Below, piece after piece: positions 40,813 through 64,000 of a stretch of 64,000 bases of DNA (its first letter is position 1; each line of letters begins with the position of its first letter). Origin of the DNA: Acidobacteriota bacterium. Lineage in GTDB: Bacteria > Acidobacteriota > UBA6911. The notes under the pieces were generated by a model. It was given only the letters and a program-made list of their open reading frames with translations. It had not been told where the DNA came from and did not search any database. The DNA is taken from assembly GCA_031271905.1 (NCBI GenBank), contig JAISUT010000032.1, forward strand, positions 13,887 through 77,886, written 5' to 3'. A program made the position numbers and the translations under genes.

Positions 40813-40836
40813 AGAAAATCAGGCCTCGTCTCATTC

Positions 40837-40956
40837 GGGAACCTCTAAAAACCCCGGACGCTGCGTTGCGCCTTGATCGAAAATGCTCATTTACCCCGGT
40901 AAACTCCGCTTTTCGACCTGCGGCAGACGCATTGTCTGCGAGCTTTTTAGAGGTTC
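40837..40956 (+). repeat. MITE/REP-like element, long form (copy I)
   Basis: gggaaCCTCTAAAAACCCCGGACGCTGCGTTGCGCCTTGATCGAAAATGCTCATTTACCCCGGTAAACTCCGCTTTTCGACCTGCGGCAGACGCATTGTCTGCGAGCTTTTTAGAGGttctc; lies between HlyD gene 3 and the permease. Confidence 0.9.
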
Positions 40957-41111
40957 TCATTAATCAGAACAATCGCAAGGCAGGTTCGGAAACCGACCCG
41001 CCACCCGCTCGGCGCGGGCGGTCGGCGGGGGCGGCACCCGCCGGAACGAAGCGCCGCCCCCGCCTTCTTCACGACTTCACGACAACCGCAAGGCGCGGCG
41101 CGCCATCCGCG

Positions 41112-42506: not shown

Positions 42507-42526
42507 TAACCTCGCAACAACTTAGC

Positions 42527-43756: not shown

Positions 43757-45078
43757 TTTTTGGTCACCTCAGCAAGGAATTGAACGGGGAGCAGCTTGTC
43801 GCCGACCGAAACGCCGGACTTGACCTCCACCAGCTTGTCGCCCATGGAGCCGACCTCGACGAACTGGGTGTCGGCGTCTTTGGCGCTGGTGCCCTTGACC
43901 ACATAGGACTTCCCCTTGGAATCGGTGCCGACGTACTCGCGGGGCACCGTCGTGACGCCTTTGGCCAAGACCAGCGGGATGTTGATGCGCGCCGTCATCC
44001 CCGGCTTCAACTTCGAGGAATCCACCTTGTCGAGCCGGATCACGGTCTGGAACAGCTTCTTCTCCGAAGAGAACCCGCGCCGGCTGGCCACGCTGGTGAG
44101 CGATACCACCCGACCGCCGACCTCGTATCCGGGTAGCGCGTCGAGCGTCACGGTGCAGGGCATCTCGGCCTTGATCTTGCCGTATTCTGTGTCGTACACA
44201 TAGCCGACCACCTGCATGCTCTCAAGGTCGGGGATGCTCGCCACCTCCGCGCCGGGGAAGATGGTGTCGCCCGGCTGGACCTTCCGGTTGTTCTGCCAGT
44301 TGTCGCCGTAGATGAAGATGCCGTCCTGGGGGGCGTACATCTTCAGCAGCGTCATGTCGCTGTCGATCTTCTTGAGGTTGATCTCCGCCTGCGACTTGTC
44401 GATTTCCACCAGCGCCATCTGGGAGTCGTAGCTGTCTTCGAAGTTTTTCAGCGACTCCTTCGCTTTTTCCAAGGAGAGCTTGGCCTTCAGGAGGTCCAGT
44501 TGGTATTTCTGGTAGTCGTTCGCGGAAAGGAGGCTCTTGTCGATTTTGGCGTAGAGCTGGGCTTTTTTCAGCGTCGCCTCCGCCTGGGCGACGCTGTTCA
44601 ACTGGTCGCAACGGTCCGCCTCGAGGTCGGCCTTCTGCTTGGAGATCTTCAACTTGTTTTCGTCCAGCGTCTTTTCGGCGTCCGAACGGGAGCTGAGCAG
44701 CGTGGAGTCGTCGAATTCGACGACCAGCTCGCCCGCATGCACGACCGACCCCTCGTCGGCCATGTAGGTGAGCGTGTTGTTGAAGCTGCTCTGGATCCTG
44801 GGGGCGAGGATGCTTATAGACCGCTCGGCCTTCAGCTCTCCCGTGAGCACGACGTCCTGGAGCACTTCGCCCGCCTCCACGACATATCCCTTCGGCTTGC
44901 TGGAGGAGAAAGCCTCTTCCTGGACGATGGGCGGCTCGGCGGCGTTTTTTTTGCCGCCGCCGAGTCCGGGGTTCTGCGCGGAAACGCGCGCCGTCCCGGT
45001 CAGGGCCGCGCAAAGGACGACGCCCGCCGCAACCGCGGCGGCGCGCCGGAACCCGACCTCACGCATCCATGTCGACAT
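43753..45078 (-). CDS. HlyD-family membrane-fusion protein, paralog 1
   Basis: Signal/TM anchor; coiled coil; HlyD-like C-terminus; start uncertain (45066, 45078 or 45198). Confidence 0.7.
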   Translation of the reverse strand: MSTWMREVGFRRAAAVAAGVVLCAALTGTARVSAQNPGLGGGKKNAAEPPIVQEEAFSSSKPKGYVVEAGEVLQDVVLTGELKAERSISILAPRIQSSFNNTLTYMADEGSVVHAGELVVEFDDSTLLSSRSDAEKTLDENKLKISKQKADLEADRCDQLNSVAQAEATLKKAQLYAKIDKSLLSANDYQKYQLDLLKAKLSLEKAKESLKNFEDSYDSQMALVEIDKSQAEINLKKIDSDMTLLKMYAPQDGIFIYGDNWQNNRKVQPGDTIFPGAEVASIPDLESMQVVGYVYDTEYGKIKAEMPCTVTLDALPGYEVGGRVVSLTSVASRRGFSSEKKLFQTVIRLDKVDSSKLKPGMTARINIPLVLAKGVTTVPREYVGTDSKGKSYVVKGTSAKDADTQFVEVGSMGDKLVEVKSGVSVGDKLLPVQFLAEVTKK

Positions 45079-45098
45079 GGTCATCCTGTTCATAAAGC

Positions 45099-46346
45099 TT
45101 AACCCCGATTTCGATTGTTGGAATTGCCGGCGTTGTTGAATTTCGGTTTCGGCCTGGGATCCGCCGGCATGGGCTGTTCGTTGAGCCACGCGCTCCAATC
45201 CGATTCGATCTGCGCAAAATTGTCGCCCAGCACGTCGGGCTGGACGAGATATTCGCGGGTCTCCTTCCCTTGGCGCACGTACTGGATGAGCTGCTTCATC
45301 CCGCCGGCGCCGAACTTCTGCAGGAAAAACTCGAAGAAGGTGATGGCCTGTCCGTCGAAAAGCAACCGGTCCTGCTCGGCCTTGGACAGGACGCGCGGGG
45401 GCATCCCCTCGCCGCCGGCCTTGGGCTTGGTCCGCGTCCCCTGCCCTCCGGCGCCGCCGCCGGGGAAGCCGCCGCCCGGCATCCCGCCGCCCATGCCGCC
45501 ACCGGGGAAGCCTCCGCCCATCTGCCCCATGCCGCCGCCGGGGAAGCCTCCGCCCATCTCGCCCGCTCCGCCGCCGTCGGAGCCGCCGGAGCCGCCCTGC
45601 TGGTCGGAGGAGGTGCTGACGAAAGGCCGGGACATGCCGATGACATCTTCAATGGAGAAGGCTTGGTCGAGGTTCGCGCGCAGGTACCGGATCGCCTCCG
45701 TGTCGCCGCTGGCGTAGGCGGCGATGCCGACGTCCAGCCAGTCCGGCAGGGGGCTCTTGACCACATCCGTGACGCGGCTGGAGCGGTAGCGGAAATCCGC
45801 GCCGCCCAGCATCGACTGCAGCACGGCGAAAGCGATGTCGCGCGCCATCTCGCCGGCCGCCTGCTGCTCGGCGCCCGACGCCATGTCGCGCGGCGGGTTG
45901 CTCATCCGGCGGCGCATCTCCTCCGGCATGTTGTCGCCGATGCGCGAGCGGATGCGCGCCATGGTCTCCTGCATCCGCACCTCCGGCGTGACCGAGATCA
46001 GCACCCAACTATACCCTCGCTTGAGCACCACCGGCTCGTAGAGGGAATCCTTCTGCGCCAGGTTCGAGCAGATGAAGATCGCGCCCTTGGGCAGGTCTTC
46101 GTCGAACAGCCCCTTGAGCTTGGCCACGGCTTCCGCGGCGGCCTTCTCATAGGGGGCGATCACCTGCCGGCTGGAGGCGAAGAAGTCCACGCCGGGGACG
46201 ACGTTGTGGAACGTGTTGAAGTTCTTGAAGCTGACGGCCTGGGCGTGCGCACAGTCCGCGCCTGACAGGGCGGTCAGCGCGACCAGCGGCGCGACCAGCA
46301 ACCAGCCCAAGGATAGGATCCTGCTTGTTCGTGTCATTCTCAACAT
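45099..46346 (-). CDS. Secreted hypothetical protein with an internal Gly-rich tandem repeat (GGFPGGGMG)
   Basis: Signal peptide at MLRMTRTSRILSLGWLLVAPLVALTALS; about 60-aa Gly-rich repeat encoded by ~27-bp DNA tandem repeats; first gene of the exporter cluster. Confidence 0.5.
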   Translation of the reverse strand: MLRMTRTSRILSLGWLLVAPLVALTALSGADCAHAQAVSFKNFNTFHNVVPGVDFFASSRQVIAPYEKAAAEAVAKLKGLFDEDLPKGAIFICSNLAQKDSLYEPVVLKRGYSWVLISVTPEVRMQETMARIRSRIGDNMPEEMRRRMSNPPRDMASGAEQQAAGEMARDIAFAVLQSMLGGADFRYRSSRVTDVVKSPLPDWLDVGIAAYASGDTEAIRYLRANLDQAFSIEDVIGMSRPFVSTSSDQQGGSGGSDGGGAGEMGGGFPGGGMGQMGGGFPGGGMGGGMPGGGFPGGGAGGQGTRTKPKAGGEGMPPRVLSKAEQDRLLFDGQAITFFEFFLQKFGAGGMKQLIQYVRQGKETREYLVQPDVLGDNFAQIESDWSAWLNEQPMPADPRPKPKFNNAGNSNNRNRG

Positions 46347-46627
46347 GCGCGCGCTCCGTCCCCCGATGAAAAAAACCGCCACGGCCGCCCCGCTTCCCAA
46401 CGACCGGGCGCACACGCCCATCGCCCATCGCCCATGGGCGGCCATGGGCAGGTTCCCAGTTCGTTTTACGCTGGTTAACTACGTCCCGGGTGCGCGGCTT
46501 GTTACATCTTTAAACTTTAAACAAACGCCGGCGGCGGGCGGCCCCGCGTCGCGCCATGGGGAGGCGCGCAGGCGCGGCAAGCACGCATCGGCGACCGGCG
46601 ACGCGACGCCGAAACGCGACGCCGCGA

Positions 46628-47924: not shown

Positions 47925-49124
47925 ATGAACATGGCTTCATCCGGAGGCATCGCCTCCGCCCATTCCACCGTCCCGTTTGATGCGCTGTACGGCGTCACCG
48001 CCGCGCCCCCCCGCATATTGATCGTGGGCGGCAATGCGATAGAACGCGACGTGATGTCGCGCAAGTTCACCGGGCAGGGGTACGTCTGCGAGTGCCGCGA
48101 AACGGCGCAGGCGGCGCTGGAGTTGCTTGGCGACGAGGAGTTCGACCTGGTCTTGACCGACACGGCGACGCCGGAGGGCGGCATCGGCCCCTTCCTCTCG
48201 GAGGTGCTGCGCATCCGCCCTGACGCCGCCGTCATCCTGACCACATCGACCGAGGACATCGACGAGGCCGTGGCCGCCTTGAAAGACGGCGCCTACGACT
48301 GGTGCACCCGGCCCTTCGGCCCCGGCGAGATCGCCATGAGCGTCTCACGCGCGCTCGAAAAGCGGCAGTTGCGCATGGAAAACCGCAACTACCAGCGCAC
48401 GCTGGAGGAGCAGGTCTCGAGCCGCACCAGCCAGTTGCAAGAGGCGTTGAAGGTGCTAGACCTCACCTACCACTCCACGCTGGTCGCCCTCGGGCGGGCG
48501 CTCGACAGCCGCGACAAGGACTCCGCCGGCCGCGCCCCGCGCGTGGCGGCATACGCGCGTCGCCTCGCCCAGCAACTCGGGCTCGGGCAGAGGGAGGTGC
48601 GGGAGATCGAGCAAGGGGCGCTGCTGCACGACATCGGGAAGATCGGCATCCCCGACGCGCTGCTCGGCAAGCGCGAACTGACCGAGGAGGAGGAGCGCGT
48701 CATGCGCACCCACCCGGAGATCGGCTACAACATCCTCTCCGGCATCAAATTCCTCAAAGGCACCGCGTTGCTGACCCTGCAATCGCACGAGCGGTACGAC
48801 GGGAACGGGTTCCCGCAAGGGTTGCGGGGCGAGGAGATCTCGCTGGGCGCAAGGATATTGGCCGTCGCCGACGCATTCGAGGACCTCGCGTCAGAGGCGT
48901 CCGCCGCCACCCGGAACATCTCGGACATCCTCGACCCGTTGGACATGCTGGAGACCCCGCGCGCCGTCACAGAGGCGCTCGAAGGGTTGAAACGGCTCGC
49001 CGGCGGCAAGCTGGACCCCCGCCTGGTCGGGGAATTCGTCAGGATCCACGCCGACGAGTGGGCGCAAATCAGGGAGTCGGCGTCCGCCCGCTCCCGACGC
49101 CCCCGCCCGCCCCGGCTGACGTGA
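47925..49124 (+). CDS. Response regulator with an HD-GYP c-di-GMP phosphodiesterase domain
   Basis: REC domain (LVLTDTATP...); HD-GYP motifs (ALLHDIGKIGIPD; HERYDGNGFPQG). Confidence 0.8.
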   Translation: MNMASSGGIASAHSTVPFDALYGVTAAPPRILIVGGNAIERDVMSRKFTGQGYVCECRETAQAALELLGDEEFDLVLTDTATPEGGIGPFLSEVLRIRPDAAVILTTSTEDIDEAVAALKDGAYDWCTRPFGPGEIAMSVSRALEKRQLRMENRNYQRTLEEQVSSRTSQLQEALKVLDLTYHSTLVALGRALDSRDKDSAGRAPRVAAYARRLAQQLGLGQREVREIEQGALLHDIGKIGIPDALLGKRELTEEEERVMRTHPEIGYNILSGIKFLKGTALLTLQSHERYDGNGFPQGLRGEEISLGARILAVADAFEDLASEASAATRNISDILDPLDMLETPRAVTEALEGLKRLAGGKLDPRLVGEFVRIHADEWAQIRESASARSRRPRPPRLT

Positions 49125-49209
49125 CCGCCGCGACCCGCGCCCCCGCATCCAAGGTTTTCGCAATTTGCCCCTGCATTTCCCCCTCCCTTGCGGGCATAAT
49201 AGCTTCCTT

Positions 49210-50031
49210 ATGAAAGTTCCCGTCGCGCTCACCATCGCAGGCTCCGACCCCTCGGGAGGCGCCGGCGTCCAGGCCGACCTGAAGACCTTCCACCAACGCG
49301 GCGTGTACGGCGCATCGGCGGTCACCTTGTTGACCGTGCAAAACACGCAGCGGGTCGATGCCGTCCAAGTGCTCGCCCCCGAACTCGTGGAGGCGCAGGT
49401 GCGGGCGGTGATCGAGGACATCCCCCCCGCCGCCGCCAAGACCGGCGCGCTCGGGGACGAGCGGGTGGTCCGGCTGGTCGCGGAGTTGGCGGAGGGGTTC
49501 GACTTCCCGCTGGTGGTGGATCCGGTCATGGTCTCCAAGCACGGCCGCGCCCTCCTGACGGCACCGGCGAGACGCGCGCTCGGGGAGTTGCTGCTGCCCC
49601 GGGCGCACCTGGTGACGCCGAACCTGCCGGAGGCGGAGGAGCTGGCGGGGATGCCGGTGCGCGACCTGGACGGGATGAAGGCGGCGGCGGTGGCGATCGT
49701 GGCTCGCGGCGCGCGCGCCGCGCTGGTCAAGGGCGGGCACCTGGAAGGCGGCGGTCGCCCCGTGGACGTGCTCTACTCCGAGGCGACGGGGTTGATGTGC
49801 CTGGACGCGCCGCGCATCGAGACGCGGCACACGCATGGCACCGGGTGCACCTATTCCGCCTGCATCACCGCCGAACTCGCCAAGGGCGCGCCGCTGGCGG
49901 ACGCCGTGACGCTGGCGAAGGAGTTCATCACACGGGCAGTCGAGTCCGCCCCCGGCCTGGGGCGGGGTTCCGGGCCCGTCAACCATTTCGCCGACGTGCC
50001 GGACGCCCGATCCGGCCGCCGTCGCGGATGA
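49210..50031 (+). CDS. thiD: Hydroxymethylpyrimidine/phosphomethylpyrimidine kinase
   Basis: ALTIAGSDPSGGAGVQADLKTF N-terminus; ribokinase-like fold patterns. Confidence 0.85.
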   Translation: MKVPVALTIAGSDPSGGAGVQADLKTFHQRGVYGASAVTLLTVQNTQRVDAVQVLAPELVEAQVRAVIEDIPPAAAKTGALGDERVVRLVAELAEGFDFPLVVDPVMVSKHGRALLTAPARRALGELLLPRAHLVTPNLPEAEELAGMPVRDLDGMKAAAVAIVARGARAALVKGGHLEGGGRPVDVLYSEATGLMCLDAPRIETRHTHGTGCTYSACITAELAKGAPLADAVTLAKEFITRAVESAPGLGRGSGPVNHFADVPDARSGRRRG

Positions 50032-52478: not shown

Positions 52479-53261
52479 TCAGTTGATGAATATGGCGAGG
52501 GTCGGGAAGCGCATGACGACGTCCTGCACCCCGTAGCCGCTCACCGAGCTGCCTGCGGCGTAGACGATGCGCAGGTTGGGCATCGTGAGGAAGACGTCGA
52601 TGTCCTGGTCGTAGACGCTGCAACGCATCAGGTTCAGCTCGTTCAGCCGCGCCATCCCCCGCAGCTTCTGCAAGCCCGCGCCCGTGACCTGCGTGTCGGC
52701 GAGCGACAAGACCTCCAGCCCCTTGATGCCGGCGGCGTATTCCAGCGCGTCGTCCTTGACGGGGTTGCCGCTCAGGTTCAGCACCGTCAAGTTGGGCGCC
52801 TTGACGTTCTTCAGCACGGCGGCGCCGACGCCGGTGCGCTGGAGCGAGAGCGCCTCGAGCTTGTCGAGCCTGCCGAGCCATTCCAGCCCGTCGCCCCCCA
52901 AGGCGACGTCGTGGATGTAAAGCCGCTTGAGCGCCGTGCAGTCTTTCAGGTGCGCGACCCCGGCGGGGGTCACCTTGCCGCCGCCGACCTCCAGCCATTC
53001 CAACGCGGGCAATGAAGGCAGGAGCGCCATCGCCTCGTCGGTCAGCTCGCCGTTCACGGCTTCTATCCAGCGCACGGCCCCGGCGGGATCCTTGTGCATC
53101 GGCACGCCCAGCTTCGCCAGCGCGTCCGCGGCGGCGGACTCCTTGGCGGCGGGCGCGGCATGCGTTCCCGCGGTCGCGGACACGTCATCGGCGGCGAGCG
53201 GCGACGCCCCGCACACCGCCACGGCCGTCACGGCCATTAAAAACCTGATGAAAACCCTCAT
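52479..53261 (-). CDS. Secreted leucine-rich-repeat protein
   Basis: Signal peptide; repeated LxxLxLxxT/N segments. Confidence 0.55.
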   Translation of the reverse strand: MRVFIRFLMAVTAVAVCGASPLAADDVSATAGTHAAPAAKESAAADALAKLGVPMHKDPAGAVRWIEAVNGELTDEAMALLPSLPALEWLEVGGGKVTPAGVAHLKDCTALKRLYIHDVALGGDGLEWLGRLDKLEALSLQRTGVGAAVLKNVKAPNLTVLNLSGNPVKDDALEYAAGIKGLEVLSLADTQVTGAGLQKLRGMARLNELNLMRCSVYDQDIDVFLTMPNLRIVYAAGSSVSGYGVQDVVMRFPTLAIFIN

Positions 53262-53288
53262 GGAAGCCTCCTTCGCCCTGTGGGCGCA

Positions 53289-54812
53289 TTATTTCCTGAA
53301 GCGGGAGCAGTCGATGCCGTACTTCTTCACCTTGTAGTTGAGCACGCGCTCGGTCGTGCTCAGTAGGCGCGCGGCGCGGCTGCAGTTGCCCGTCGTGGTC
53401 TTGAGCGCGTCCACGATCAAATCTTTTTCGTAGGACGCCACCGAGTCGCCGAGGGAGACCTTGACGATCGTGCCGGACGCCTCGGCCGTCTGGAGCGTCG
53501 GCGGCAGGTGGTGCCCGTGGATGACGTTGCCGTCGCAGATCAGCACCGCCCGCTCGATGGCGTTCTCCAGCTCGCGCACGTTCCCCGGCCAATGGTAGCT
53601 CATCAGCATGTCGATGGCGGGCGTCGAGATGCGCTTGATGCTCTTGTTGTGCTCGCGCGTGTACTTGTCCAGGAAATAGTCGGTCAGCGCCATGATGTCG
53701 GGCTTGCGCTCGCGCAGGGGGGGGATGAAGATGCTGAAGACGTTGAGGCGGTAATAAAGATCTTCGCGGAACGTCCCCTCGGTGATGGCGTTTTCCAAGT
53801 CCTTGTTGGTCGCCGTGATCAGGCGCGCCTTGATCTTGATGGTCTCCGTGCCGCCCAGGCGCTCGAACTCCCGCTCCTGCAAGACGCGCAGGAGCTTCAC
53901 CTGCGTCGTCAGGTTCAGGTCGCCGATCTCGTCCAGGAAGATCGTCCCCCCCTCGGCCAGCTCGAAGCGCCCCATCTTGCGCGACTGCGCGCCGGTGAAC
54001 GCCCCCTTCTCGTAGCCGAACAGCTCCGACTCGATCAGCGTCTCGGGCAGGGCGGCGCAGCTCACCTTGACGAACGGCTTTTTCGAGCGCGACGAGCTGT
54101 AATGGATGGCGTGCGCGATGAGCTCCTTGCCGGTGCCCGACTCCCCCCGTATGAGCACCGAGGTGTTGGTCCCGGCGACCTGCGCGATCTGCTCGTAGAC
54201 CTGGCGCATCCCGCCGCTGCCGCCGATCATGTTGGAGAAGTCGTAGCGCTCGCGCAGCTCCTCGCGCAGTTGCGTGTTCTCCGCCTGCAGCTTCTTGGTC
54301 TCGGCCTGCACCAGCCGCTCGACGCGCACCGCCTGGCCGATGAACCCGGCGATCACGCGCAGGAACTTGACCGTCTGCTCGTAGTCGCGGTCCTTTTTGA
54401 AGCGCATGTCCACGCCGAGCGCCCCCACGGTCTTGCGCCCCTCCATGATCGGGACGCAGATGTAGCTCAGCTCGTCCTTCAGGTTCTTCCGCTGCACGGC
54501 GCGGTTCAGCAGGAGCGGCTCGCTGCTGGCGCGCGGCACGACTATCGGCTTGCCGCTCTCCACCACGCGCCCCGTTATCCCCTCGCCGATGCGGTACTGG
54601 GCGCGCTGCCCCTCGGGGCTGATGCCGTTGGACGCCTCGATGTGCAGCTCCGAGTCCTCGCGCAAAAGGGTCACGGCGCTGCGCACCATGCCGTGGCGCG
54701 CCTCCAGGATCTCCAACACCCGGTGCAACGAGTGCTTCAGGTTCAACGTCCCCGACAACGCCTGGCTCAGCTCCAAAAGCGTGGTCAACCGTTTGGATTC
54801 CCTGGACTCCAT
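53289..54812 (-). CDS. Sigma-54-dependent transcriptional activator (GAF-AAA+-HTH, NifA/Fis family)
   Basis: Walker A (GESGTGKE); GAFTGA motif; ESELFGYEKGAFTGA; C-terminal HTH; N-terminal GAF. Confidence 0.85.
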   Translation of the reverse strand: MESRESKRLTTLLELSQALSGTLNLKHSLHRVLEILEARHGMVRSAVTLLREDSELHIEASNGISPEGQRAQYRIGEGITGRVVESGKPIVVPRASSEPLLLNRAVQRKNLKDELSYICVPIMEGRKTVGALGVDMRFKKDRDYEQTVKFLRVIAGFIGQAVRVERLVQAETKKLQAENTQLREELRERYDFSNMIGGSGGMRQVYEQIAQVAGTNTSVLIRGESGTGKELIAHAIHYSSSRSKKPFVKVSCAALPETLIESELFGYEKGAFTGAQSRKMGRFELAEGGTIFLDEIGDLNLTTQVKLLRVLQEREFERLGGTETIKIKARLITATNKDLENAITEGTFREDLYYRLNVFSIFIPPLRERKPDIMALTDYFLDKYTREHNKSIKRISTPAIDMLMSYHWPGNVRELENAIERAVLICDGNVIHGHHLPPTLQTAEASGTIVKVSLGDSVASYEKDLIVDALKTTTGNCSRAARLLSTTERVLNYKVKKYGIDCSRFRK

Positions 54813-55042
54813 TACACGTCCCCCCTCCTGCGCGACGAGCCTATTACAAAATTGTCGATGCGACGGACTAGCCTACGGAATTGTTGTCCACAGGTCAAGA
54901 AATTTATTTCACCGGCCGTCCTCGCCCTTGAATTACCGCGCCGGGGCGGTATCTTATGAAACCGTAATTTATGGAAAATCCTGGGACGATTAAAAAAACT
55001 AATGAGGTAAACATGTCGTATCTAGTTGTAAAAAATACAGTT

Positions 55043-56839
55043 ATGTCGAAAATTGCGCCGAAGGCGGCGCGCGCGGCACTGCCGTTGCTGGCGCTCCTGA
55101 CGTCGGCGGCGGCCGTCGCCCAGCACCGGCTGCCCGCGGAGAGCGTGGTGGTGACGGCGAACGCCTCGCCCGTCCCCTTTGAAAACCTGGCGAAGACCGT
55201 GACGGTGCTCGACGGCGAGGACATCGCGGCCCTCCCGGCGCACTCCATCACCGACGTGCTGGCGCAGGCGGCATCGGTCGACCTGGAGTCGCGCGGCCCC
55301 TTCGGGGCGCAGGCCGACATCAAGCTGCGCGGCTCGGCGTATTCGCAGACGCTGGTGCTGATCGACGGGGTGCGGATGAACGACTCCCAGACGGGGCACC
55401 ACAACGCCGACTTCCCCGTCCCCCTGCAAGCCATCGAGCGGATCGAGGTGCTGCTGGGGCCGGGCTCGTCCATCTACGGTGCGGACGCCTTCGGCGGCAT
55501 CATCAACATCATCACCAAGCGAGAGACGGCCGCCACCCAGGCGTCGGTTTCGGGCGGGATGCACGGCTACGTGGCGGGTTCGTTCTCGGCGGGGTTCGGG
55601 AACGGGCGGATCGGCCAGTCGGTCAGCGTCGCGGGCGAGCGCTCGGGCGGATTCATGGAGGACCGCGACTTCCGCAACGTGACGGTCTCCTCGCGCACGA
55701 ACATCGGCGAGGACACGTCCCTCTTCGTGTCGCACGGCAACAAGGAGTTCGGCGCCTACGGCTTCTACGGCCCCTCCCCGTCGCGGGAGTGGACGAACCA
55801 GACGATGCTCTCCTTCGAGCGGAAGCACCGGACGAAGGGGGGCGCGGAGCTTTTCCTCCAAGGCTTCTACCGGACGCACGGCGACCACTTCCTTTACAAC
55901 CAGGACACGCCGGGGGTGAGCGAGAACCGCCACCGGACGCACGCGACGGGGGTGCTGGCGAAGGCGCGCCTCGCCTTGGGCGAGGCGGCGGCGCTCACCT
56001 TCGGCGCGGACTTCGGCGGCGACTGGATTTTCTCGAACAACCTCGGCGACCATGCCTTCGCCCGCCAGAGCGGCTTCGGCGAGCTGCAATGGAACCTGGG
56101 CGGGAAGGCGGCGGTCTACCCGGGCGTCCGCATCGACCGCTACTCCAATTTCGGCACTGCAGTGAGCCCGTCGCTGAGCGGGAGCTGGTGGGCGTCACCG
56201 CGCCTGCGCCTGCGCGCCGCCGTAGGCAAGGCGTTTCGCATCCCCACGTTCCAGGAGCGCTATTACTTCGACCCCAACAACGTGGGGAACCCCGACGTGA
56301 AGCCGGAGAAGGCGTGGTCGGCGGAGGTCGGCGCAGACGTCATCCCCGCCGAAGGCTGGTCGGGCGGCGTCACCGCCTTCACCCGGCGCGAGCGCGACGT
56401 GATCGACTGGATCCGCGTCACGGACGCCGAGAAATGGCGCACCGCCAACATCCACCGGCTCCGCACGGACGGCGTGGAGTTGAGCCTGGAGCGCGCGTTC
56501 GGGGACGAGGCGGCCGTCGGCGCGCGCTACAGCTACATATCGAGCGACGCCGGGGAGGTCTCCTACATCTCCAAATACGTGCTGGACTACGCCCGCCACA
56601 CCGTGGCATCCACCGCGCGCCTCCCGCTCTTTTTGAAGTTGCGCTACAGCCAGACGCTCAGCTACAAGCGGCGCTCGGACGGGCGCTCCTACTGGCTGTG
56701 GGACACCTCGCTGGAACGTCCTTTCCACAAGCTGGTCGTCGGGATCGACTTCGCCAACCTGCTCGACAGCCGATACCAGGAGATACAGGGCGTGGACATG
56801 CCGGGCCGCTGGCTGGCCGTCCGCATCGGCACCCGTTGA
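55043..56839 (+). CDS. TonB-dependent outer-membrane receptor (BtuB/CirA-size)
   Basis: Signal peptide; TonB box-like ESVVVTA; plug and barrel patterns; ~600 aa. Confidence 0.75.
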   Translation: MSKIAPKAARAALPLLALLTSAAAVAQHRLPAESVVVTANASPVPFENLAKTVTVLDGEDIAALPAHSITDVLAQAASVDLESRGPFGAQADIKLRGSAYSQTLVLIDGVRMNDSQTGHHNADFPVPLQAIERIEVLLGPGSSIYGADAFGGIINIITKRETAATQASVSGGMHGYVAGSFSAGFGNGRIGQSVSVAGERSGGFMEDRDFRNVTVSSRTNIGEDTSLFVSHGNKEFGAYGFYGPSPSREWTNQTMLSFERKHRTKGGAELFLQGFYRTHGDHFLYNQDTPGVSENRHRTHATGVLAKARLALGEAAALTFGADFGGDWIFSNNLGDHAFARQSGFGELQWNLGGKAAVYPGVRIDRYSNFGTAVSPSLSGSWWASPRLRLRAAVGKAFRIPTFQERYYFDPNNVGNPDVKPEKAWSAEVGADVIPAEGWSGGVTAFTRRERDVIDWIRVTDAEKWRTANIHRLRTDGVELSLERAFGDEAAVGARYSYISSDAGEVSYISKYVLDYARHTVASTARLPLFLKLRYSQTLSYKRRSDGRSYWLWDTSLERPFHKLVVGIDFANLLDSRYQEIQGVDMPGRWLAVRIGTR

Positions 56840-56971
56840 CCGACCCGAAGCGATGTTCTGCGTCCTTTCCGCAATCATCGCCTCCATCGCCTTCGTCTGA
56901 GAGGGTTTGGAGAGATGGCACCCCAAACGGCGGTTTGGCGGCCAGCGTCGAAAATGACGGGCAGGCGCCGA

Positions 56972-59179
56972 TCAGACGCGGCGGGCGGCACGCACCGAGG
57001 GGATTTCGCCGATGAGTTGCAACGCGCGCTGCATCTGCCCCACGCCGGCGACCTCCAAAGTGAACCGCAACCGCGCCGAGCCTTGGCGGGAGAGCGTGCT
57101 GACGGCGGTGACGTTGATCGACTCGCGCGACATGACCTCGGTGATGTCGCGCAAAAGGCCGGTGCGGTCGGCGCATTCCACCTCGATGTCCACGGCGTAG
57201 GAGCCGTTTTTCGTCCCCTCGCCCCACGTCGCCCCTATGACCCTTTCGGGGTTCAGCCGCGCCATGCCGACGAAGTTAGGGCATTGCACACGGTGGATGG
57301 AGACGCCCTTGCCGCGCGTGACATACCCCTGGATGGGGTCGGGCGGCGCGGGCTTGCAGCACCTGCCGAGCTGCGTCAACAGCTTGTCCATGCCGACGAC
57401 CAGCACGCCGTCGGGTTTTCCGTCCGTCTTGCTCTTGCGCGGCGTAAACGCCTCGGCGGGCGGCGGCGGCGCAGGCTCGCCGCGCAACGCCTGCTGGATG
57501 GCGCCCACCCCCAGCTCCCCGCGCCCGACGGCCAGGAACAGGGCGTCCGCGCCGTCCAGGCCGAGCTTCGCCGCCAGCTCCTCGATGTTGGCATGCGTCG
57601 CCCCCTCGCGCTGCAGCTCCCGCTGCACGGCGGCGCGGCCGTCGGCGGACGTCTGCGCCACGTCCAACGCGACGAAATACTGCTTGACCTTGTTGCGGGC
57701 GCGGGACGTCTTCAAATACCCCAACTGGGGGTTGAGCCAATCGCGCGACGGCCCGCCCTGCTTGGCGGTGACGACCTCCACCGTCTGCCCCGAACGGAGC
57801 GGGGTGTTCAGGGCGATGAGCGCCCCGTCCGCCTTCGCGCCCCGGCAGCGGTGCCCGACCTGCGTGTGGACGTGGTAGGCGAAGTCCACCGGCGTTGAGC
57901 CGCGCGGCAAGTCCACGACCCTCCCCTGCGGCGTCAGGACGTAGACCGTGTCGTCCAGCGCCGCGCGCTTGAACTGCTCGACCCAGTTCGAGGCGTCGGC
58001 GACGTCGTCGCGCCAGGAAAGGAGCTCGCGCAGGAGCGCCACCTTGTCGGCGTAGCCGTCCTTCTTGCCCGCGCCGCCCAACCCCTCTTTGTAGCGCCAG
58101 TGCGCCGCCACGCCCAGCTCCGCGTGCTCGTGCATCTCCCAAGTGCGGATCTGCACCTCCAGCGGCCGCCGGTCGGCGGCGACCACGGCGGTGTGCAGCG
58201 ACTGGTAGAGGTTCCCCTTGGGCTTGGTGATGTAGTCGTCGAACTCCTTCGCTATCGGCGCCCACATCTGGTGCACGATGCCCAAGACGGTGTAGCAGTC
58301 GTGGACGTGCTTGACGATGACGCGGATGGCGCGCAGGTCGTAGACTTCTTCGAGCGGGACCCGCTTGGCGCGCATCTTGCGCCAGATGCTGTAGATGTGC
58401 TTGGGCCGCCCGTAGACCTCCGCCTCGACGCCCGCCTCCGCGCACTTGCCCTTGAGCAGCGCCACGGACTCGGCGACGAAGCGCTCGCGCTCGACGCGCT
58501 TCTCGTCCAGTTGGCGGGCGATCTGCTTGTAGGCGTCCGGGTCGAGGTAGCGGAAGCTCAAGTCCTCGATCTCCCACTTGATCTCCCAGACCCCGAGGCG
58601 GTTGGCGAGGGGCGCGTAGATGTCCAGAGACTCGCGCGCGGTGTCGGCGCGCTCCGGGCCGGGGAGGTTCGCGTAATAGCGCAGGGTCTGCGTCCGGCTG
58701 GCCAGGCGCAGGAGGATGACGCGGATGTCGTCCGAAAGCGCCAGCACCATCTTGCGCAGGACTTCGGGCTGCGTCCGCACCTCGTGCAGGCTCGACGCGG
58801 GGCCGGGGGCGATGAGGCGCAGGCCGTTCAGGCGCTGCAACCCCCGCACCAGGCGCGCCACGTCAGCGCCGAAGTCTTTCTCGATCCGCGCGCCAGCGTC
58901 CTCCGGGCAGAACCCGTGCATCGCGAAAAGGAGGGCGGCGAGGCGGCTCGACGCATCCAGGCGCAGCGCGCCCGTGATCAACGCCATGCCGACGGCATGC
59001 GCGAAGACGTCCTCTCCCGTGGTCAGGCGTCCGCCCGCATAAAGCGGCTCGACCAGTTCCAGCGCGCGCCGGATGCGCGCGCCTTCCTCCGGCGGCAGTC
59101 CGGCGCCGAGCCGTTCCCAGGAAACGGCCTCCGGCGCGTCCGAGTTCAAAGAGTGCGGCACGTAAACCATGTTAGGCAT
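56972..59179 (-). CDS. relA: Bifunctional (p)ppGpp synthetase/hydrolase RelA/SpoT
   Basis: HD, RelA_SpoT, TGS and ACT patterns; 735 aa. Confidence 0.9.
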   Translation of the reverse strand: MPNMVYVPHSLNSDAPEAVSWERLGAGLPPEEGARIRRALELVEPLYAGGRLTTGEDVFAHAVGMALITGALRLDASSRLAALLFAMHGFCPEDAGARIEKDFGADVARLVRGLQRLNGLRLIAPGPASSLHEVRTQPEVLRKMVLALSDDIRVILLRLASRTQTLRYYANLPGPERADTARESLDIYAPLANRLGVWEIKWEIEDLSFRYLDPDAYKQIARQLDEKRVERERFVAESVALLKGKCAEAGVEAEVYGRPKHIYSIWRKMRAKRVPLEEVYDLRAIRVIVKHVHDCYTVLGIVHQMWAPIAKEFDDYITKPKGNLYQSLHTAVVAADRRPLEVQIRTWEMHEHAELGVAAHWRYKEGLGGAGKKDGYADKVALLRELLSWRDDVADASNWVEQFKRAALDDTVYVLTPQGRVVDLPRGSTPVDFAYHVHTQVGHRCRGAKADGALIALNTPLRSGQTVEVVTAKQGGPSRDWLNPQLGYLKTSRARNKVKQYFVALDVAQTSADGRAAVQRELQREGATHANIEELAAKLGLDGADALFLAVGRGELGVGAIQQALRGEPAPPPPAEAFTPRKSKTDGKPDGVLVVGMDKLLTQLGRCCKPAPPDPIQGYVTRGKGVSIHRVQCPNFVGMARLNPERVIGATWGEGTKNGSYAVDIEVECADRTGLLRDITEVMSRESINVTAVSTLSRQGSARLRFTLEVAGVGQMQRALQLIGEIPSVRAARRV

Positions 59180-59224: not shown

Positions 59225-60643
59225 TCAAAAGTAGATGTCGCGCTTGCCGGCGTCGATCTCGTCCAGCGCCCGCTTCATCCGACCCTTCAACGCCTCGTCG
59301 CCCAAGCCCGCGACCAGCTCCTTGACCAGCTTGCCGCCGCTCGCCTTGGTCGCGGGCGAGGCGAAGTCGTTCAGGTACTCCTCGAAGGTGAAGACCGCGT
59401 TCGGCATGCAGTACTGCTTGATGAGGCCGGGCTTCGCCAAGTCCATGAAGTCGTTGCCGACGCGCCCCATTCGGTAGCAACCGGTGCAGAACGAGGGGAT
59501 GTAGCCCTTGTCCACCACCGAGGCGATGACCTCGTCCAAGCTGCGGTGGTCGCCGAGTGCGAACTGGCTGCCGGTCGCCTCCGCCTCGTCGCCGTAGGCG
59601 CCGGGGTTGACGCGCGAGCCGGCCGAGATCTGGCTGACGCCGTAGTTGTAAAGCTCCGTGCGCATCTGCTCGTTCTCGCGCGTGCTCAGGATGATGCCGG
59701 TGTAGGGCATGGCGATGCGGACGATGGCGATGATCTTCTTGAAGTCGTCGTCGCCGACCGGGTGGGGGACGTGCGACGCCAGCGGCGCGTTCTCCGCCGG
59801 CTCGATGCGCGGGAAGCTCACCGTGTGCGGCCCGCAGCCGAACAGCGCCTCCAGGTGCGCCGCGTGCTCCATGATCGCCAGGGTCTCGAAACGGTAGTCG
59901 GCAAGGCCGAACAGCACGCCCAGCCCGACGTCGTTGACGCCCCCCTCCATCGCGCGGTCCATCACCGTCACGCGATACTCGTAGTCGGCCTTGGGCGTCC
60001 CCTTGGGATGATATTTCTTATACATTTCCGGGTCGTAGGTCTCCTGGAAACAGACGTAGGTGCCGATCTTCTCCGCCTTCAGCCTGGCGAAGTCGGCGAC
60101 CTCCATCGGCGCCAGCTCCAGGTTGATGCGTCGGACGTAATGCCCCCCCTCGCGGACGCGGTAGACGGTGCGGATGGCGTCGCACATGTAGTCGGTGTCG
60201 TTCTGCGCGGTCTCCCCGCAGATCAAAAGGACGCGCTTGTGCCCCTCGCGCAACAGCACGCGCGCCTCGCGCCCGATTTCGTCCATCGTGAGGATCTTGC
60301 GCCGCAGGGAGGTGTTGCTCTTGCGGAAGGCGCAGTAGACGCAGTTGTTGTCGCAGACGTTGCCCGTATAGACGGGCGCGAACAGCACGAGGCGCTTGCC
60401 GTAGATCTCCTCTTTCACATAATGGGCGCAATCCATGATCTTGCGGATCTGCGCCGTGTCCCCGACCGCGAGCAGCGAGGCGACATCGTCGAGGGACAAG
60501 CCCTTCAGCCGGCGGGCGCGGTTGAGTATCTCGTCCAGCCCGCCCTCTGTCGGCGCAGGCCGCTCCAACATGCCGTAGAGCTTGTCGCGGTCGATGAACC
60601 CCTTGCCTTTCTCATGCTGTCGCGCTGTTGCGATCATCTCCAT
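59225..60643 (-). CDS. hydG: [FeFe]-hydrogenase maturase HydG-type radical SAM tyrosine lyase
   Basis: CDNNCVYCAF radical SAM motif; C-terminal CTGC...C with exact CX2CX22C spacing, which is diagnostic of HydG rather than ThiH; start uncertain (60643 or 60571). Confidence 0.75.
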   Translation of the reverse strand: MEMIATARQHEKGKGFIDRDKLYGMLERPAPTEGGLDEILNRARRLKGLSLDDVASLLAVGDTAQIRKIMDCAHYVKEEIYGKRLVLFAPVYTGNVCDNNCVYCAFRKSNTSLRRKILTMDEIGREARVLLREGHKRVLLICGETAQNDTDYMCDAIRTVYRVREGGHYVRRINLELAPMEVADFARLKAEKIGTYVCFQETYDPEMYKKYHPKGTPKADYEYRVTVMDRAMEGGVNDVGLGVLFGLADYRFETLAIMEHAAHLEALFGCGPHTVSFPRIEPAENAPLASHVPHPVGDDDFKKIIAIVRIAMPYTGIILSTRENEQMRTELYNYGVSQISAGSRVNPGAYGDEAEATGSQFALGDHRSLDEVIASVVDKGYIPSFCTGCYRMGRVGNDFMDLAKPGLIKQYCMPNAVFTFEEYLNDFASPATKASGGKLVKELVAGLGDEALKGRMKRALDEIDAGKRDIYF

Positions 60644-60893
60644 CCTCCTTGTAGTTCGTGAGCACCGATTTCACCTGGACCCCCGGCAGGCGGCCGATCT
60701 TCCCGGTCGCGGCGCCGATCTGGTCGGTGGTCCCCTCGACGATGAGCGAGATGACGTTCACCCGCCGGTCGCGCAAAGGCATCCCCTGCCGCCCGAGCAC
60801 GATGTCGCAGTGGGACGAGATGATGGCGTTGAGTTTCGGTATGCTGGCCTTGTCTTGGACGAGTATCGCGATGACGCCGATTCTCTTTTCCAT
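60612..60893 (-). CDS. TM1266-like putative iron-only-hydrogenase system regulator (small ACT/NikR-C-like protein)
   Basis: 93 aa; MEKRIGVIAILVQD...LGRQGMP...VISLIVEGTTDQIGAATGKIG pattern; immediately upstream of hydG. Confidence 0.55.
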   Translation of the reverse strand: MEKRIGVIAILVQDKASIPKLNAIISSHCDIVLGRQGMPLRDRRVNVISLIVEGTTDQIGAATGKIGRLPGVQVKSVLTNYKEDGDDRNSATA

Positions 60894-61009
60894 CAGATCA
60901 CCTCTGGATCAGAAACTGGTTCGGAGTCCTTGAAAAGGATCAATCCGTTTCGCAGACGGATTAATATATAATCCAAAAACAACTTTATGCCAAGGGGGAG
61001 GACGGCGAT

Positions 61010-62701
61010 ATGGACAGGGGCACGGACGGACGCAAGGGAGGCGACGGGGCGATGCGGGGGCAGGCTGCGGGGCGGGGCTCTTCCCGCCGGACGTTCCTGG
61101 CCAAGGTGGGCGCGGGGGCGCTGGGCGTCGCCTCGTCCGGCGCGCTGGCCGCCCAGCGACCGGCGCGGGCCGAGGAGGGCGCGGGGCAGGCTGCGGTCGC
61201 GGAGACGCTGGACTGCGACGTGCTCGTCATCGGCGGGGGTGCCTCCGGCTGTTGCGCAGCCATCCGCGCCGCCGAGGAGGGCGCCAAGGTCATCCTCGTC
61301 GAGAAGGGGCGCACGCTCGGCGGTTGCTTCAACCTGTCTTTCGCCGCGACGACCTACGGCTCGCGGTTCGGCGCGGGGCAGCCTCCAAGCTTCGGCATCC
61401 CCGACTTGGAAGCCTACATATCCGCGTGGCTGGCGAACTCCCATTGGCGTTGCGACGCCGCCGCCGTCCGCCAACTGGTCGTGAACTCCGGCAAGGCTTA
61501 CGACTGGCTGGCGGACAAGGGGCTCGGGCTCACGCCGTTCGGCGGGGGGAGCGGCATGTTGATGCTGCCCGATTACGCGGTGCGGCCGGTGTTCTGGAAG
61601 GAGAAGACGACCGCCGCCGTCGAGAAAAGCGGCGGGCGCCTGATGCTCTCTGCGGCGGCGCAGTCGCTGGTCAAGGAGGGCGCAGCCGTCGTCGGCGCCG
61701 TCGTCCGGGAACGGGACGGCGGCACGACGCGCGACATCCGCGTCAACGCCAAGGCCGTCAGCATCTCCACCGGCGGCTACGCGGGCAACCCCGAGATGGT
61801 GCGCGAGGCCGTCGGCTTCGACGTCGTCAACGGCTCGTTGCCGCAGAACGTGGGCGAGGGGTTGCGGATGGCGTGGGAGGCGGGTGCCTGGAAGCCCCGC
61901 AACTTCGGCGGGCAGATGCTCCACCAGACGATCGTCCGGGCGACGAACTCCCTCGCGCAACATTTCGAGCCGTTCCCGGCGAAATACCCGCTGCTGCTGG
62001 CATACCTGCCCATGACCCTCAACGTGGGCACCTCCGGCCTGCGCTTCCGCGACGAGGCGCTGATCCTCGACCCGGTGGCGGCGTCGAACTCCAGCGCCTA
62101 CCAAGGCCCGCACCACTACGTGATCGCCTCGAAGCGTCTCCTGGACGCGCTCGCCGCCGGTGGGCTCGCCGCCGTCGGGCAGACGTCGCAACCGGGGCTG
62201 CCGCCCGAGATGCAGCCGCCCGGCTACACCCCCGCGACCCCGTGGAAGGGGGTCTACGACGTGTTCGACAAGGGCGCGCAACTCAAAGTGGTCTTCAAGG
62301 GGGACACCCCCGCGAAGCTGGCGGGCGCCGCAGGCATGGACGAAGCGGCGTTCGTGCGGACTTTCGGCGACTACCGGCGGTTCACCCTCGAAAAGAAGGA
62401 CGCGCAGTTCGGCAAGGCTCCGGCGTTCCTGCTGGACTACGGCGAGGAGGGGCCGCTGTACGCCGTCAAAGCCGAGGTGAACAACCTCGGCTCCTTCGGC
62501 GGCATCCAGACCTCGTTGCGCTACGAGGCGCTGACGGCGGCGCACCGTCCCGTCCCCGGCCTGTACGCGACCGGTTCCGAGGCGGGCAGCAACCTCTACA
62601 ACGACACCTACGTCGGCAGCGGCATCGGGCTGGCGAACGCCGTGACCTCCGGCTACCTGTGCGGCAAGGCGATGGCGGATTACGCCTTGGGGAGAAAATA
62701 G
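61010..62701 (+). CDS. Tat-exported FAD-dependent oxidoreductase (fumarate reductase/succinate dehydrogenase flavoprotein-like, FAD_binding_2)
   Basis: Twin-arginine signal (SRRTFLAKVGAGALGVA); GxGxxG (VIGGGASG); start may be at 61052. Confidence 0.75.
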   Translation: MDRGTDGRKGGDGAMRGQAAGRGSSRRTFLAKVGAGALGVASSGALAAQRPARAEEGAGQAAVAETLDCDVLVIGGGASGCCAAIRAAEEGAKVILVEKGRTLGGCFNLSFAATTYGSRFGAGQPPSFGIPDLEAYISAWLANSHWRCDAAAVRQLVVNSGKAYDWLADKGLGLTPFGGGSGMLMLPDYAVRPVFWKEKTTAAVEKSGGRLMLSAAAQSLVKEGAAVVGAVVRERDGGTTRDIRVNAKAVSISTGGYAGNPEMVREAVGFDVVNGSLPQNVGEGLRMAWEAGAWKPRNFGGQMLHQTIVRATNSLAQHFEPFPAKYPLLLAYLPMTLNVGTSGLRFRDEALILDPVAASNSSAYQGPHHYVIASKRLLDALAAGGLAAVGQTSQPGLPPEMQPPGYTPATPWKGVYDVFDKGAQLKVVFKGDTPAKLAGAAGMDEAAFVRTFGDYRRFTLEKKDAQFGKAPAFLLDYGEEGPLYAVKAEVNNLGSFGGIQTSLRYEALTAAHRPVPGLYATGSEAGSNLYNDTYVGSGIGLANAVTSGYLCGKAMADYALGRK

Positions 62702-62781: not shown

Positions 62782-63070
62782 GACGGGGGATGGGAAATGA
62801 TCCAACCCTGTAAGGGTTGCGCAAAGGACAACCGTTTGGCGCGGGGCGCAACCGCTTCGTCTCTGGCCCGTGCCTGGTTTTGATTTTGATAAAGATTTCT
62901 TAACCTTTCACCCACCGCCATTTCTTTACGATAGATTGCGTTTGTCTGAGAAGGGAGGAGGCTTGGAGGCTTGACGCGCCGGAGACGGTTCACGCATATC
63001 GCTCTTCGCGGTGCGCCATGACGTTCAAGGTTTTGCAATTGGCTCAATAGAAAAGGGGAAACGTTAAGGA

Positions 63071-63610
63071 ATGAAAAAAGTCCTATGTACGATCTCTGTC
63101 CTATCACTGCTCTTTATCGGTATGCAGTCATGCACACCGACCGACACCGATGATGAGCCATCCGCCACCGGTACCGAGCAAACCGGCACGGACCCGATCG
63201 GCACGAACAGCCAGTATCCCTATCCCGAGACGACCACACTCATTGCCCGTCAGGAAGGGGATGTGATTGAATATCCGGCTACTCTGGCAATCAGCGAGAA
63301 AGGGTACGGCATCTACGTCCTCGAAGACTTCGAGCTTATCGAAAGCAGTGGGTACGACAACATCAAGCCGAAGGCTACTTCCGAAATCATGGAGACGATA
63401 CAGATATTCATCTATCCCGCCCAGGCGGGTTCCGCCGAACCGACACCGGAAGCCGATGAGACCGACGGCGTGGGTATCGAAGCCGATCGGAAGAGAATAG
63501 AGCTTGACGGCAATGTATTCGATATCAAATGGGAGTATCCCGTCGAAGCCTCGGACAATATCGGTATTCTGACGACGATGGTCAACTCTATCGTCGGACC
63601 GAAGTCCTGA
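63071..63610 (+). CDS. Hypothetical lipoprotein encoded in an AT-rich segment
   Basis: Signal peptide with a Cys lipobox (LFIGMQSC); acidic; GGGAAA Shine-Dalgarno-like sequence upstream; about 50 percent GC. Confidence 0.5.
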   Translation: MKKVLCTISVLSLLFIGMQSCTPTDTDDEPSATGTEQTGTDPIGTNSQYPYPETTTLIARQEGDVIEYPATLAISEKGYGIYVLEDFELIESSGYDNIKPKATSEIMETIQIFIYPAQAGSAEPTPEADETDGVGIEADRKRIELDGNVFDIKWEYPVEASDNIGILTTMVNSIVGPKS

Positions 63611-63634
63611 GAATTCTATTTGCATCATCCACGA

Positions 63635-63667
63635 CAAAGCCCTGCCACCTGAGTTGGCAGGGCTTTG
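63635..63667 (+). terminator. Hairpin caaagccctgcca-cctgagt-tggcagggctttg downstream of the lipoprotein gene
   Basis: 13-bp perfect stem, 7-nt loop, lying 25 bp after the stop codon. Confidence 0.5.
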
Positions 63668-64000
63668 TCTGCCCGTGAAGCAGTTTCACTGTACGCATCT
63701 CCTGCGAGATGGTCGAAATGGCTACATGGATTTTTTCAGATAGAACATGCTCATCTTCCAATACCAACATAGTCATAGTCTTGGGAAAGCCTAATCGGGG
63801 AACGCGAATCGGCTCTGTACATGACAATGGATAGGGCGAATAAGCTGCATTTTCCGGCTCGCCCCGTCCCGTCCCGGTTTTCGATAACGGCCATTGTGTC
63901 AACTTTTCCCGCCGCAGGGACGCTTGCCTGCCTGCCTGTCGGCAGACAGGTCGGGCAGGCCCCCACACCGACGGGAACCTCGGTTCTATCCCAAGGCTCC

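Follow-up and report, generated by a model that had tools for sequence, protein, structure and literature searches.

HydG is a radical-SAM (S-adenosylmethionine) tyrosine lyase that, on its C-terminal Fe-S cluster, assembles an Fe(CO)2(CN)-cysteine synthon for the H-cluster of [FeFe] hydrogenases. In Thermotoga maritima, its gene (TM1267) forms a pair with TM1266, and we take hydF and the hydrogenase genes of that organism to lie far from the pair, so that dispersal would already be a feature of the founding example. The TM1266 family, which carries the name "putative regulator," comprises small single-domain proteins, often encoded immediately upstream of hydG. To our knowledge, next to nothing has been established about the regulation of [FeFe]-hydrogenase maturation or the role of this family, and our literature searches found no functional study of the latter. 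The stretch of DNA analyzed here, 64,000 nucleotides (nt) from an Acidobacteriota contig (JAISUT010000032.1) and referred to as the window throughout, has the same arrangement, with a gene for a 93-residue (aa) TM1266-like protein immediately upstream of a 472-aa hydG. In the clade to which the window belongs, the TM1266-like gene differs from the general picture in that it overlaps hydG and follows a conserved leader RNA. With a probability of roughly 0.8, we read the locus as a two-gene TM1266-hydG operon that has its own promoter and a structured leader and encodes a canonical HydG, with the hydrogenase, hydE, and hydF located elsewhere. The two genes belong to known families and are already annotated, whereas the leader appears to be a new structured cis-regulatory element of its mRNA. 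A preliminary description of this DNA had instead put forward the hydG as an orphan; framed in that way the locus is of little consequence, since the gene is a correctly annotated, dispersed maturase gene.

The leader is a conserved structured element that is context-specific to TM1266-like genes. Acidobacterial relatives share an almost unchanged sequence over the ≈70 to 75 nt that precede the TM1266 start codon, although synonymous positions in the adjoining genes have reached saturation (dS, the synonymous divergence, >1), and the same leader is recognizable in Bacteroidota, in Syntrophorhabdus-type bacteria, and in Spirochaetota. When 2.46 Mb of related loci were searched with a covariance model, ≈100 matches were obtained at E<0.01 in loci labeled as four lineages. 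No locus holds more than one match, and all of the matches are on the coding strand at the start position of a TM1266-like gene. Within the same 2.46 Mb, no match precedes hydE, hydF, or hydA, and loci where no TM1266-like gene was found directly upstream of hydG have no match either; the TM1266-like genes of Firmicutes and Geobacteraceae type (loci L074, L078, L076, and L084) likewise gave no match. In the window, searched with filters off, the model has a single significant match in 64 kb (58.9 bits, E=6.6e-10), followed by the opposite strand of the same spot (19.9 bits, E=0.031). A search of Rfam 15 at gathering thresholds returned no match in the window or in seven related loci, permissive Rfam 15 scans gave chance-level matches only, and our literature searches found no RNA motif associated with hydG or TM1266. 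We call the leader new because neither Rfam 15 nor the searched papers contain it, and neither source is exhaustive.

The HydG proteins labeled Acidobacteriota, Spirochaetota, Syntrophorhabdus-type, and Bacteroidales differ by only 27 to 30% while standing in varied contexts, and at most of these loci hydG is accompanied by the leader and a TM1266-like gene. This pattern suggests that the leader, TM1266, and hydG move horizontally between anaerobes as a module.

Two hairpins, P1 and P2, make up the predicted structure of the leader. P1 contains a purine internal loop, CU[GA]G / C[RA]RG, along with a stem of GAAA/UUUC, and RNAalifold recovers it from 43 distinct leaders (alignment A1) with compensatory changes at six of its seven pairs. 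For the fuller structure in the same 43 leaders, 78% of the alignment cells are paired, compared with 69% in shuffles and 34 to 58% in slid controls, and the covariation is 0.269 versus 0.148 in shuffles, a value as high being reached in 0 of 500 shuffles. In an alignment of 82 distinct leaders, pairing in the P1 helix reaches 95.3% and each of the seven pairs covaries; this alignment was fitted to the model and so leans toward the structure. P2 encloses the start codon of the TM1266-like gene (ATG, 60893-60891) together with a purine-rich ribosome-binding stretch. On alignment A4, 98.6% of the P2 cells are paired versus 23 to 53% in slid controls. Compensatory double changes occur at two pairs, among them a change from C-G to U-A in leaders with an ATA start codon, and minimum-free-energy folds of several individual leaders recover the hairpin. 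Both P1 and P2 carry the same module, in which CU[GA]N lies opposite N'[RA]RG to form a 2x2 purine internal loop.

The ATA codon was found in eight Syntrophorhabdus-type loci (L019:9733-9735, L062:9739-9741, and L009:9692-9694, and likewise L010, L038, L104, L110, and L120), where it begins the TM1266-like frame. In all eight of these, the P2 partner base has changed from C to U and the pair, which involves the third codon position, is kept. The frames (IEKRFG...) have an in-frame stop 4 to 6 codons upstream, with no ATG, GTG, or TTG between. These features suggest that ATA serves as a conserved non-canonical start codon embedded in the regulatory structure.

Because P2 pairs the start codon and the ribosome-binding stretch, post-transcriptional gating is the most likely mode of action, and the leader is probably a translational control element. 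How it would act on expression we infer from the predicted pairing. The TM1266-like gene and hydG would constitute a self-contained operon with its own promoter and a structured leader of ≈70 nt, in which P2, by base-pairing with the start codon and the ribosome-binding stretch, would block initiation. Translation of the pair would then be gated by a protein or small ligand that stabilizes or opens the hairpins. A factor binding the repeated purine-loop module would set the level of TM1266 and, via coupling, that of HydG as well; the overlap between the two genes (26 to 32 nt in the window and 23, 44, and 26 nt in the related loci L002, L003, and L171, respectively) suggests itself as the likely site of translational coupling. 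The TM1266-like protein would be the obvious candidate for the factor, being basic and encoded directly after every leader found. HydG, finally, would play its established part and supply an [FeFe] hydrogenase whose genes lie elsewhere.

Tandem-hairpin riboswitches, such as the NAD+-I (nadA) and guanidine-II (mini-ykkC) motifs, and autoregulatory protein-binding leaders likewise combine two short hairpins, a repeated internal-loop module, and a 3' hairpin over the translation start. Unlike the tandem-hairpin riboswitches, however, this leader has no Rfam 15 match, and its module of CU[GA]N opposite N'[RA]RG is distinct. We therefore raise, tentatively and at rather less than even odds, the proposal that the leader represents an undescribed class of regulatory RNA that gates TM1266-hydG translation, either as a riboswitch for a metabolite of HydG chemistry or as the RNA target of the TM1266-family protein. 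As a riboswitch, it may respond to SAM, 5'-deoxyadenosine, tyrosine, cysteine, iron, or a redox cofactor. As an RNA target, it would imply that TM1266 may sense a ligand and regulate its own expression by binding RNA rather than DNA. Were the proposal true, [FeFe]-hydrogenase maturation would have its first described case of post-transcriptional control, and TM1266, a structural-genomics orphan family, would gain a function. Conserved as it is in ≈100 loci of four lineages, the leader offers an experimental handle on the control of maturation and on the role of TM1266.

The assignment of the 93-aa protein to the TM1266 family, which the preliminary description had proposed from resemblance, is borne out by scores of 94.5 bits on TIGR03959 (cutoff 60.8) and 90.6 bits on PF21699 (cutoff 27) and by a full-length sequence match to the structure with PDB entry 2NZC (E=4.6e-11). 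An AlphaFold model of the protein (predicted local distance difference test score, or pLDDT, of 83) has a beta-alpha-beta-beta-alpha-beta fold like that of ACT domains and the NikR C-terminal domain. Its top fold match is 2NZC, followed by NikR metal-binding and ACT domains (Foldseek E 5e-5 to 1e-3, TM 0.65-0.75). Unlike NikR, the protein lacks a ribbon-helix-helix DNA-binding domain, and no DNA-binding domain of any kind was found by a Pfam scan or by a fold search of the model. Among close relatives, conservation is only partial for His28 and absent for Cys29, which makes metal binding of the NikR type unlikely. The gene is under strong purifying selection, with a ratio of nonsynonymous to synonymous substitution rates (dN/dS) of 0.06-0.18. 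Shewanella HydX was considered as an equivalent of TM1266 and rejected, HydX being a protein of 23.9 kDa.

A HydG subclade that is 80-86% identical to the HydG of the window has neither a TM1266-like gene nor the leader upstream (L090-L103, L107, L137, L086, and L172; GC content ≈0.50), and HydG can thus do without TM1266. Loci L090-L103, L107, and L137 of this subclade are JGI contigs, the names of which, as we read them, resemble those of termite-gut samples.

The 472-aa protein is assigned as a canonical HydG on several independent grounds. The HydG model TIGR03955 (cutoff 312.15) gives it 479.3 bits over model positions 34-470 of 470, whereas its score on the ThiH model TIGR02351 (281.2 bits) is below the cutoff of 380. 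The radical-SAM motif CX3CX2C is present as CDNNCVYC (C97/C101/C104), and the C-terminal motif CX2CX22C is present as CTGC-22-C (C386/C389/C412). The solved HydG structures from Thermoanaerobacter italicus (4WCX, E=3.5e-132) and Carboxydothermus hydrogenoformans (4RTB, E=1.6e-112) match it over the full length, including the C-terminus, and have the same length, the same domain order, and both cysteine motifs; no differing sequence feature was detected, and only the absence of partner genes from view sets the locus apart. ThiH shares with it the radical-SAM tyrosine-lyase core (≈residues 37-385) but is without the C-terminal cluster domain that the window protein has, and the match to the ThiH structure 7PD1 (E=2.7e-50) ends near residue 385. 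Among 123 other distinct HydGs (42-87% identity), 131 aligned positions reach a conservation of 98% or higher, and at each of these the window protein has the consensus residue. A neighbor-joining tree places it deep within HydG and far from the true ThiH proteins of related loci. The scores, the C-terminal motif, and the tree together uphold the identification as HydG rather than ThiH that was made in the preliminary description. The gene is under strong purifying selection (dN/dS=0.06-0.09), and selection on the pair as a whole is as strong in the window as in a relative whose hydG adjoins a hydrogenase. An NCBI record from an Acidobacteriota metagenome-assembled genome (MAG), MDR1727671.1, is 100% identical, is annotated HydG, and has 470 aa with a start two codons later.

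A position away from the remaining hydrogenase genes is the norm for the TM1266-hydG unit. In a scan of one genome per species, with flanks fetched up to 10 kb on 80 loci, hydA occurred within the flanks of 13, hydE of 16, and hydF of 9, and 58 of the 80 had none of the three (a tally of the lists). Metagenome loci follow the same dispersed pattern, and the oddity that had been implied for a lone hydG finds no support in these counts. Of 160 loci, 108 have TM1266 immediately before hydG. Within the clade of the window (HydG 75-87% identical), the genomic context varies from genome to genome, and one member, the Acidobacteriota MAG CAYTYP01 (L003/L006), has the order TM1266-hydG-hydB-hydA-hydC. 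Its HydG is 80% identical to that of the window and is nested in the same HydG clade of the neighbor-joining tree, and its HydA (795 bits on NF040763, cutoff 765) belongs to the trimeric group A6 NADH-dependent [FeFe] hydrogenases. A lone hydG is the rule in lineages such as Bacteroidales, whose other loci show trimeric hydrogenases and hydE nearby. In a phylogenetic-profiling study from 2011, 180 genomes were selected for the presence of HydF, and 179 of them had the HydG family (PMC3226654). Fermentative Acidobacteria MAGs carry [FeFe] hydrogenases of groups A3, B, and C (PMC9599518). We expect hydA, hydE, and hydF to be present elsewhere in this genome as well. Literature searches on orphan HydG returned nothing relevant.

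Other forms of the hydrogenase and maturase genes were encountered among the related sequences. The apparent HydA proteins of L002 and L005 were rejected as histidine-kinase domains that matched a sensory-hydrogenase fusion probe. In Bacteroidales, a sensory-type [FeFe] hydrogenase of 653 aa, in which an H-cluster domain is joined to a histidine-kinase domain, is encoded at L029:14583-16544, and the same gene is present in L036, L040, L043, L048, and L063. In all of these loci it adjoins a trimeric hydrogenase operon ≈3 kb downstream of hydG. A chimeric query of HydF and HydE was swamped by Firmicutes-like sequences and by natural fusion proteins. These HydF-HydE fusions, of 770-860 aa, have GTPase and HydF domains followed by a radical-SAM domain (proteins P0243-P0250, P0253, and P0257) and occur in several metagenomic lineages, including a Planctomycetota MAG.

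Several results weigh against our reading of the locus as a leader-controlled operon for a canonical HydG with partners encoded elsewhere. The folding energies of single leaders are not better than those of shuffled sequences (z +0.2 to -1.5), the covariation in P2 comes from one clade, and an alternative pairing between the 3' strand of P1 and the ribosome-binding stretch was rejected as not above shuffled controls. In the window, tblastn with 5 HydA, 5 HydE, and 4 HydF probes, taken from related loci and confirmed by NCBIfam for a representative subset, matched only hydG itself. The earlier statement that 64 kb contain no hydA, hydE, or hydF is correct as far as these probes go, but the 64 kb give a lopsided view of hydG, with ≈59 kb to its left and only ≈3 kb to its right (3.4 kb from hydG to the right end); the source contig is 78,418 bp long, so that up to 14 kb of it is outside the window. 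A search with the CAYTYP01 HydA found only four close homologs, none from the MAG of the window or from OY761556.1 (L002/L007), a closed 6.89-Mb Acidobacteriota chromosome with TM1266-hydG, and both are therefore without that particular hydrogenase; the search covers one subtype, and hydrogenases of groups B, C, and the other A types would miss the top 120 matches. In none of ≈25 close-clade contexts is hydE or hydF adjacent to hydG. The last three results count in favor of a true orphan, that is, of a genome with no [FeFe] hydrogenase, HydE, or HydF, in which HydG is a remnant or serves some other acceptor with a CO/CN-iron or tyrosine-derived product. We consider this quite improbable, given that the protein passes the HydG equivalog cutoff and keeps every near-invariant residue including those of both clusters, that its dN/dS rules out a decaying remnant and equals the value of the hydrogenase-adjacent relative, that HydG and HydF co-occur almost without exception in the profiling study, and that a lone hydG is usual in Bacteroidales and others whose other loci show hydrogenases and hydE. 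The preliminary description had offered both possibilities, and of the two, hydrogenase genes located far away is the one that we favor, the lone pair being usual in this HydG clade and CAYTYP01 supplying a hydB-hydA-hydC example, whereas nothing positive emerged for a different acceptor.

The remaining alternatives concern the identity of the protein, its neighbors, and the nature of the element upstream. That the protein is ThiH, the tyrosine lyase of the thiamine pathway, might be thought from the JGI label "2-iminoacetate synthase" borne by an identical protein and many relatives, and from a thiD gene in the window at 49120-50031; this identity is refuted by the family scores and by the C-terminal domain of ≈90 residues, which aligns with its CX2CX22C motif to the solved HydGs, and with true ThiH from related loci on a distant branch we give it virtually no weight. 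A functional tie between hydG and its neighbors, whether by co-transcription with relA (a stringent-response link) or through the divergent flavoprotein, which bears a twin-arginine translocation (Tat) signal, would fit the short distance to relA on the same strand, with no terminator-like site between them on that strand, and the separation of only 116 nt between the divergent flavoprotein gene and the TM1266-like start codon. Among all of the HydG loci fetched, however, homologs of relA and the flavoprotein stand next to hydG only in L001, a contig of the same organism, and relA and the TonB-dependent receptor gene are inserted relative to the gene order of L171, so that we hold such a tie to be very unlikely. 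Last, the element upstream of the TM1266-like gene could be a DNA operator, an inverted repeat bound by a transcription factor, as the near-palindrome of P1 close to the promoter and the unremarkable single-sequence folding energies would allow. Against an operator, many of the pairs are G-U wobbles (GU:39 at one P1 pair and UG:12 at another), which on the other DNA strand are C-A mismatches, and the model is strand-specific, as its two scores in the window show. The element also lies downstream of predicted -10 or -7 boxes in two phyla with different promoter types, and P2 pairs the start codon itself, with a compensatory change where the start is ATA. An operator is for these reasons improbable, and we retain the leader-controlled TM1266-hydG operon as the preferred reading.

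The promoter of this operon is putative. The sequence TTGGCA-17-TATATA of the window aligns with TTGACA-17-CAATACT or CATACT in L003 and L171, and Bacteroidota relatives have a TAnnTTTG promoter motif at the same place before P1; a consensus promoter scan did not call the window sequence, its -10 rule being unmet. From this alignment we infer a sigma-70 promoter with transcription starting at about the first base of P1. A sigma-54 promoter, considered because a sigma-54 activator gene is syntenic, was rejected, as no conserved match to TGGCAC-N5-TTGC was found upstream of the TM1266-like gene. The features of the locus are collected in Table 1.

Table 1. Positions in the window of the TM1266-hydG operon, its predicted leader, and the adjoining genes.
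Feature	Position	Strand	Remarks
hydG	59225-60643	(-)	472-aa open reading frame (ORF) from first ATG; likely true start at 60637, giving 470 aa
TM1266-like gene	60612-60893	(-)	93 aa; matches to TIGR03959, PF21699, and PDB 2NZC
hydG / TM1266-like gene overlap	60612-60643	(-)	3' end of TM1266-like gene on 5' end of hydG
Leader RNA, covariance-model match	60891-60964	(-)	model R1, 58.9 bits
Leader hairpin P1	60926-60957	(-)	GUCUGCGAAACGGAUUGAUCCUUUUCAAGGAC; predicted by RNAalifold and covariation
Leader hairpin P2	60889-60908	(-)	UCCAGAGGUGAUCUGAUGGA; parsed in 57 of 58 leaders
Putative sigma-70 promoter	60965-60993	(-)	TTGGCA, 17-nt spacer, TATATA; read from sequence
relA/spoT	56972-59179	(-)	starts 45 nt downstream of hydG
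FAD_binding_2 flavoprotein gene	61010-62701	(+)	divergent; twin-arginine motif SRRTFLAK in translation

All of the ORFs named in the preliminary description were found where it had placed them, and it was right that the pair lies directly upstream of relA on the same strand and is divergent from a Tat-signal FAD_binding_2 flavoprotein gene. In L171, whose HydG is 84% identical to that of the window, hydG is directly followed by a sigma-54 activator gene and then by a leucine-rich repeat (LRR) gene. The same two genes are present in the window, where they lie beyond relA and the TonB-dependent receptor gene (52479-59179, compared with L171:2171-4497), and the GAF-sigma-54 activators are 90% identical between the two loci, above the 84% of HydG. 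The gene order of L171 is likely ancestral, and because the activator and LRR genes there come directly after hydG, the adjacency of relA is best explained by a local insertion or rearrangement. The relA gene, the TonB-dependent receptor gene, and the Tat flavoprotein gene thus appear to be unrelated neighbors of hydG. Pfam scans of ≈40 further genes of the window identified housekeeping functions only, with assignments that include LeuRS, pantothenate genes, polysaccharide export, a pair of extracytoplasmic function (ECF) sigma and anti-sigma factors, MacB/HlyD efflux, ThiD, the TonB-dependent receptor gene, and the GAF-sigma-54 activator.

The window has a GC content of 66% (≈0.9 at third codon positions, GC3), compared with 50-58% in the contigs that hold the most similar HydGs (L002, L003, L086, L087, and L171), and 80-87% protein identity has therefore been kept across a large shift in base composition. 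Toward the end of the window (62900-64000), the GC content falls to ≈0.55-0.60. An ORF in this region (63071-63610, (+)) encodes a predicted lipoprotein of 179 aa with a signal peptide ending in ...IGMQSC; the protein has no Pfam match, and its peptide patterns had no confirmed match in the metagenome collection. The gene may be recently acquired or an orphan. Another part of the window (39577-46478, (-)) holds an unusually repetitive efflux cluster, in which three tandem HlyD-family membrane-fusion paralogs and an unannotated 459-aa ORF come after a MacB-type permease gene.

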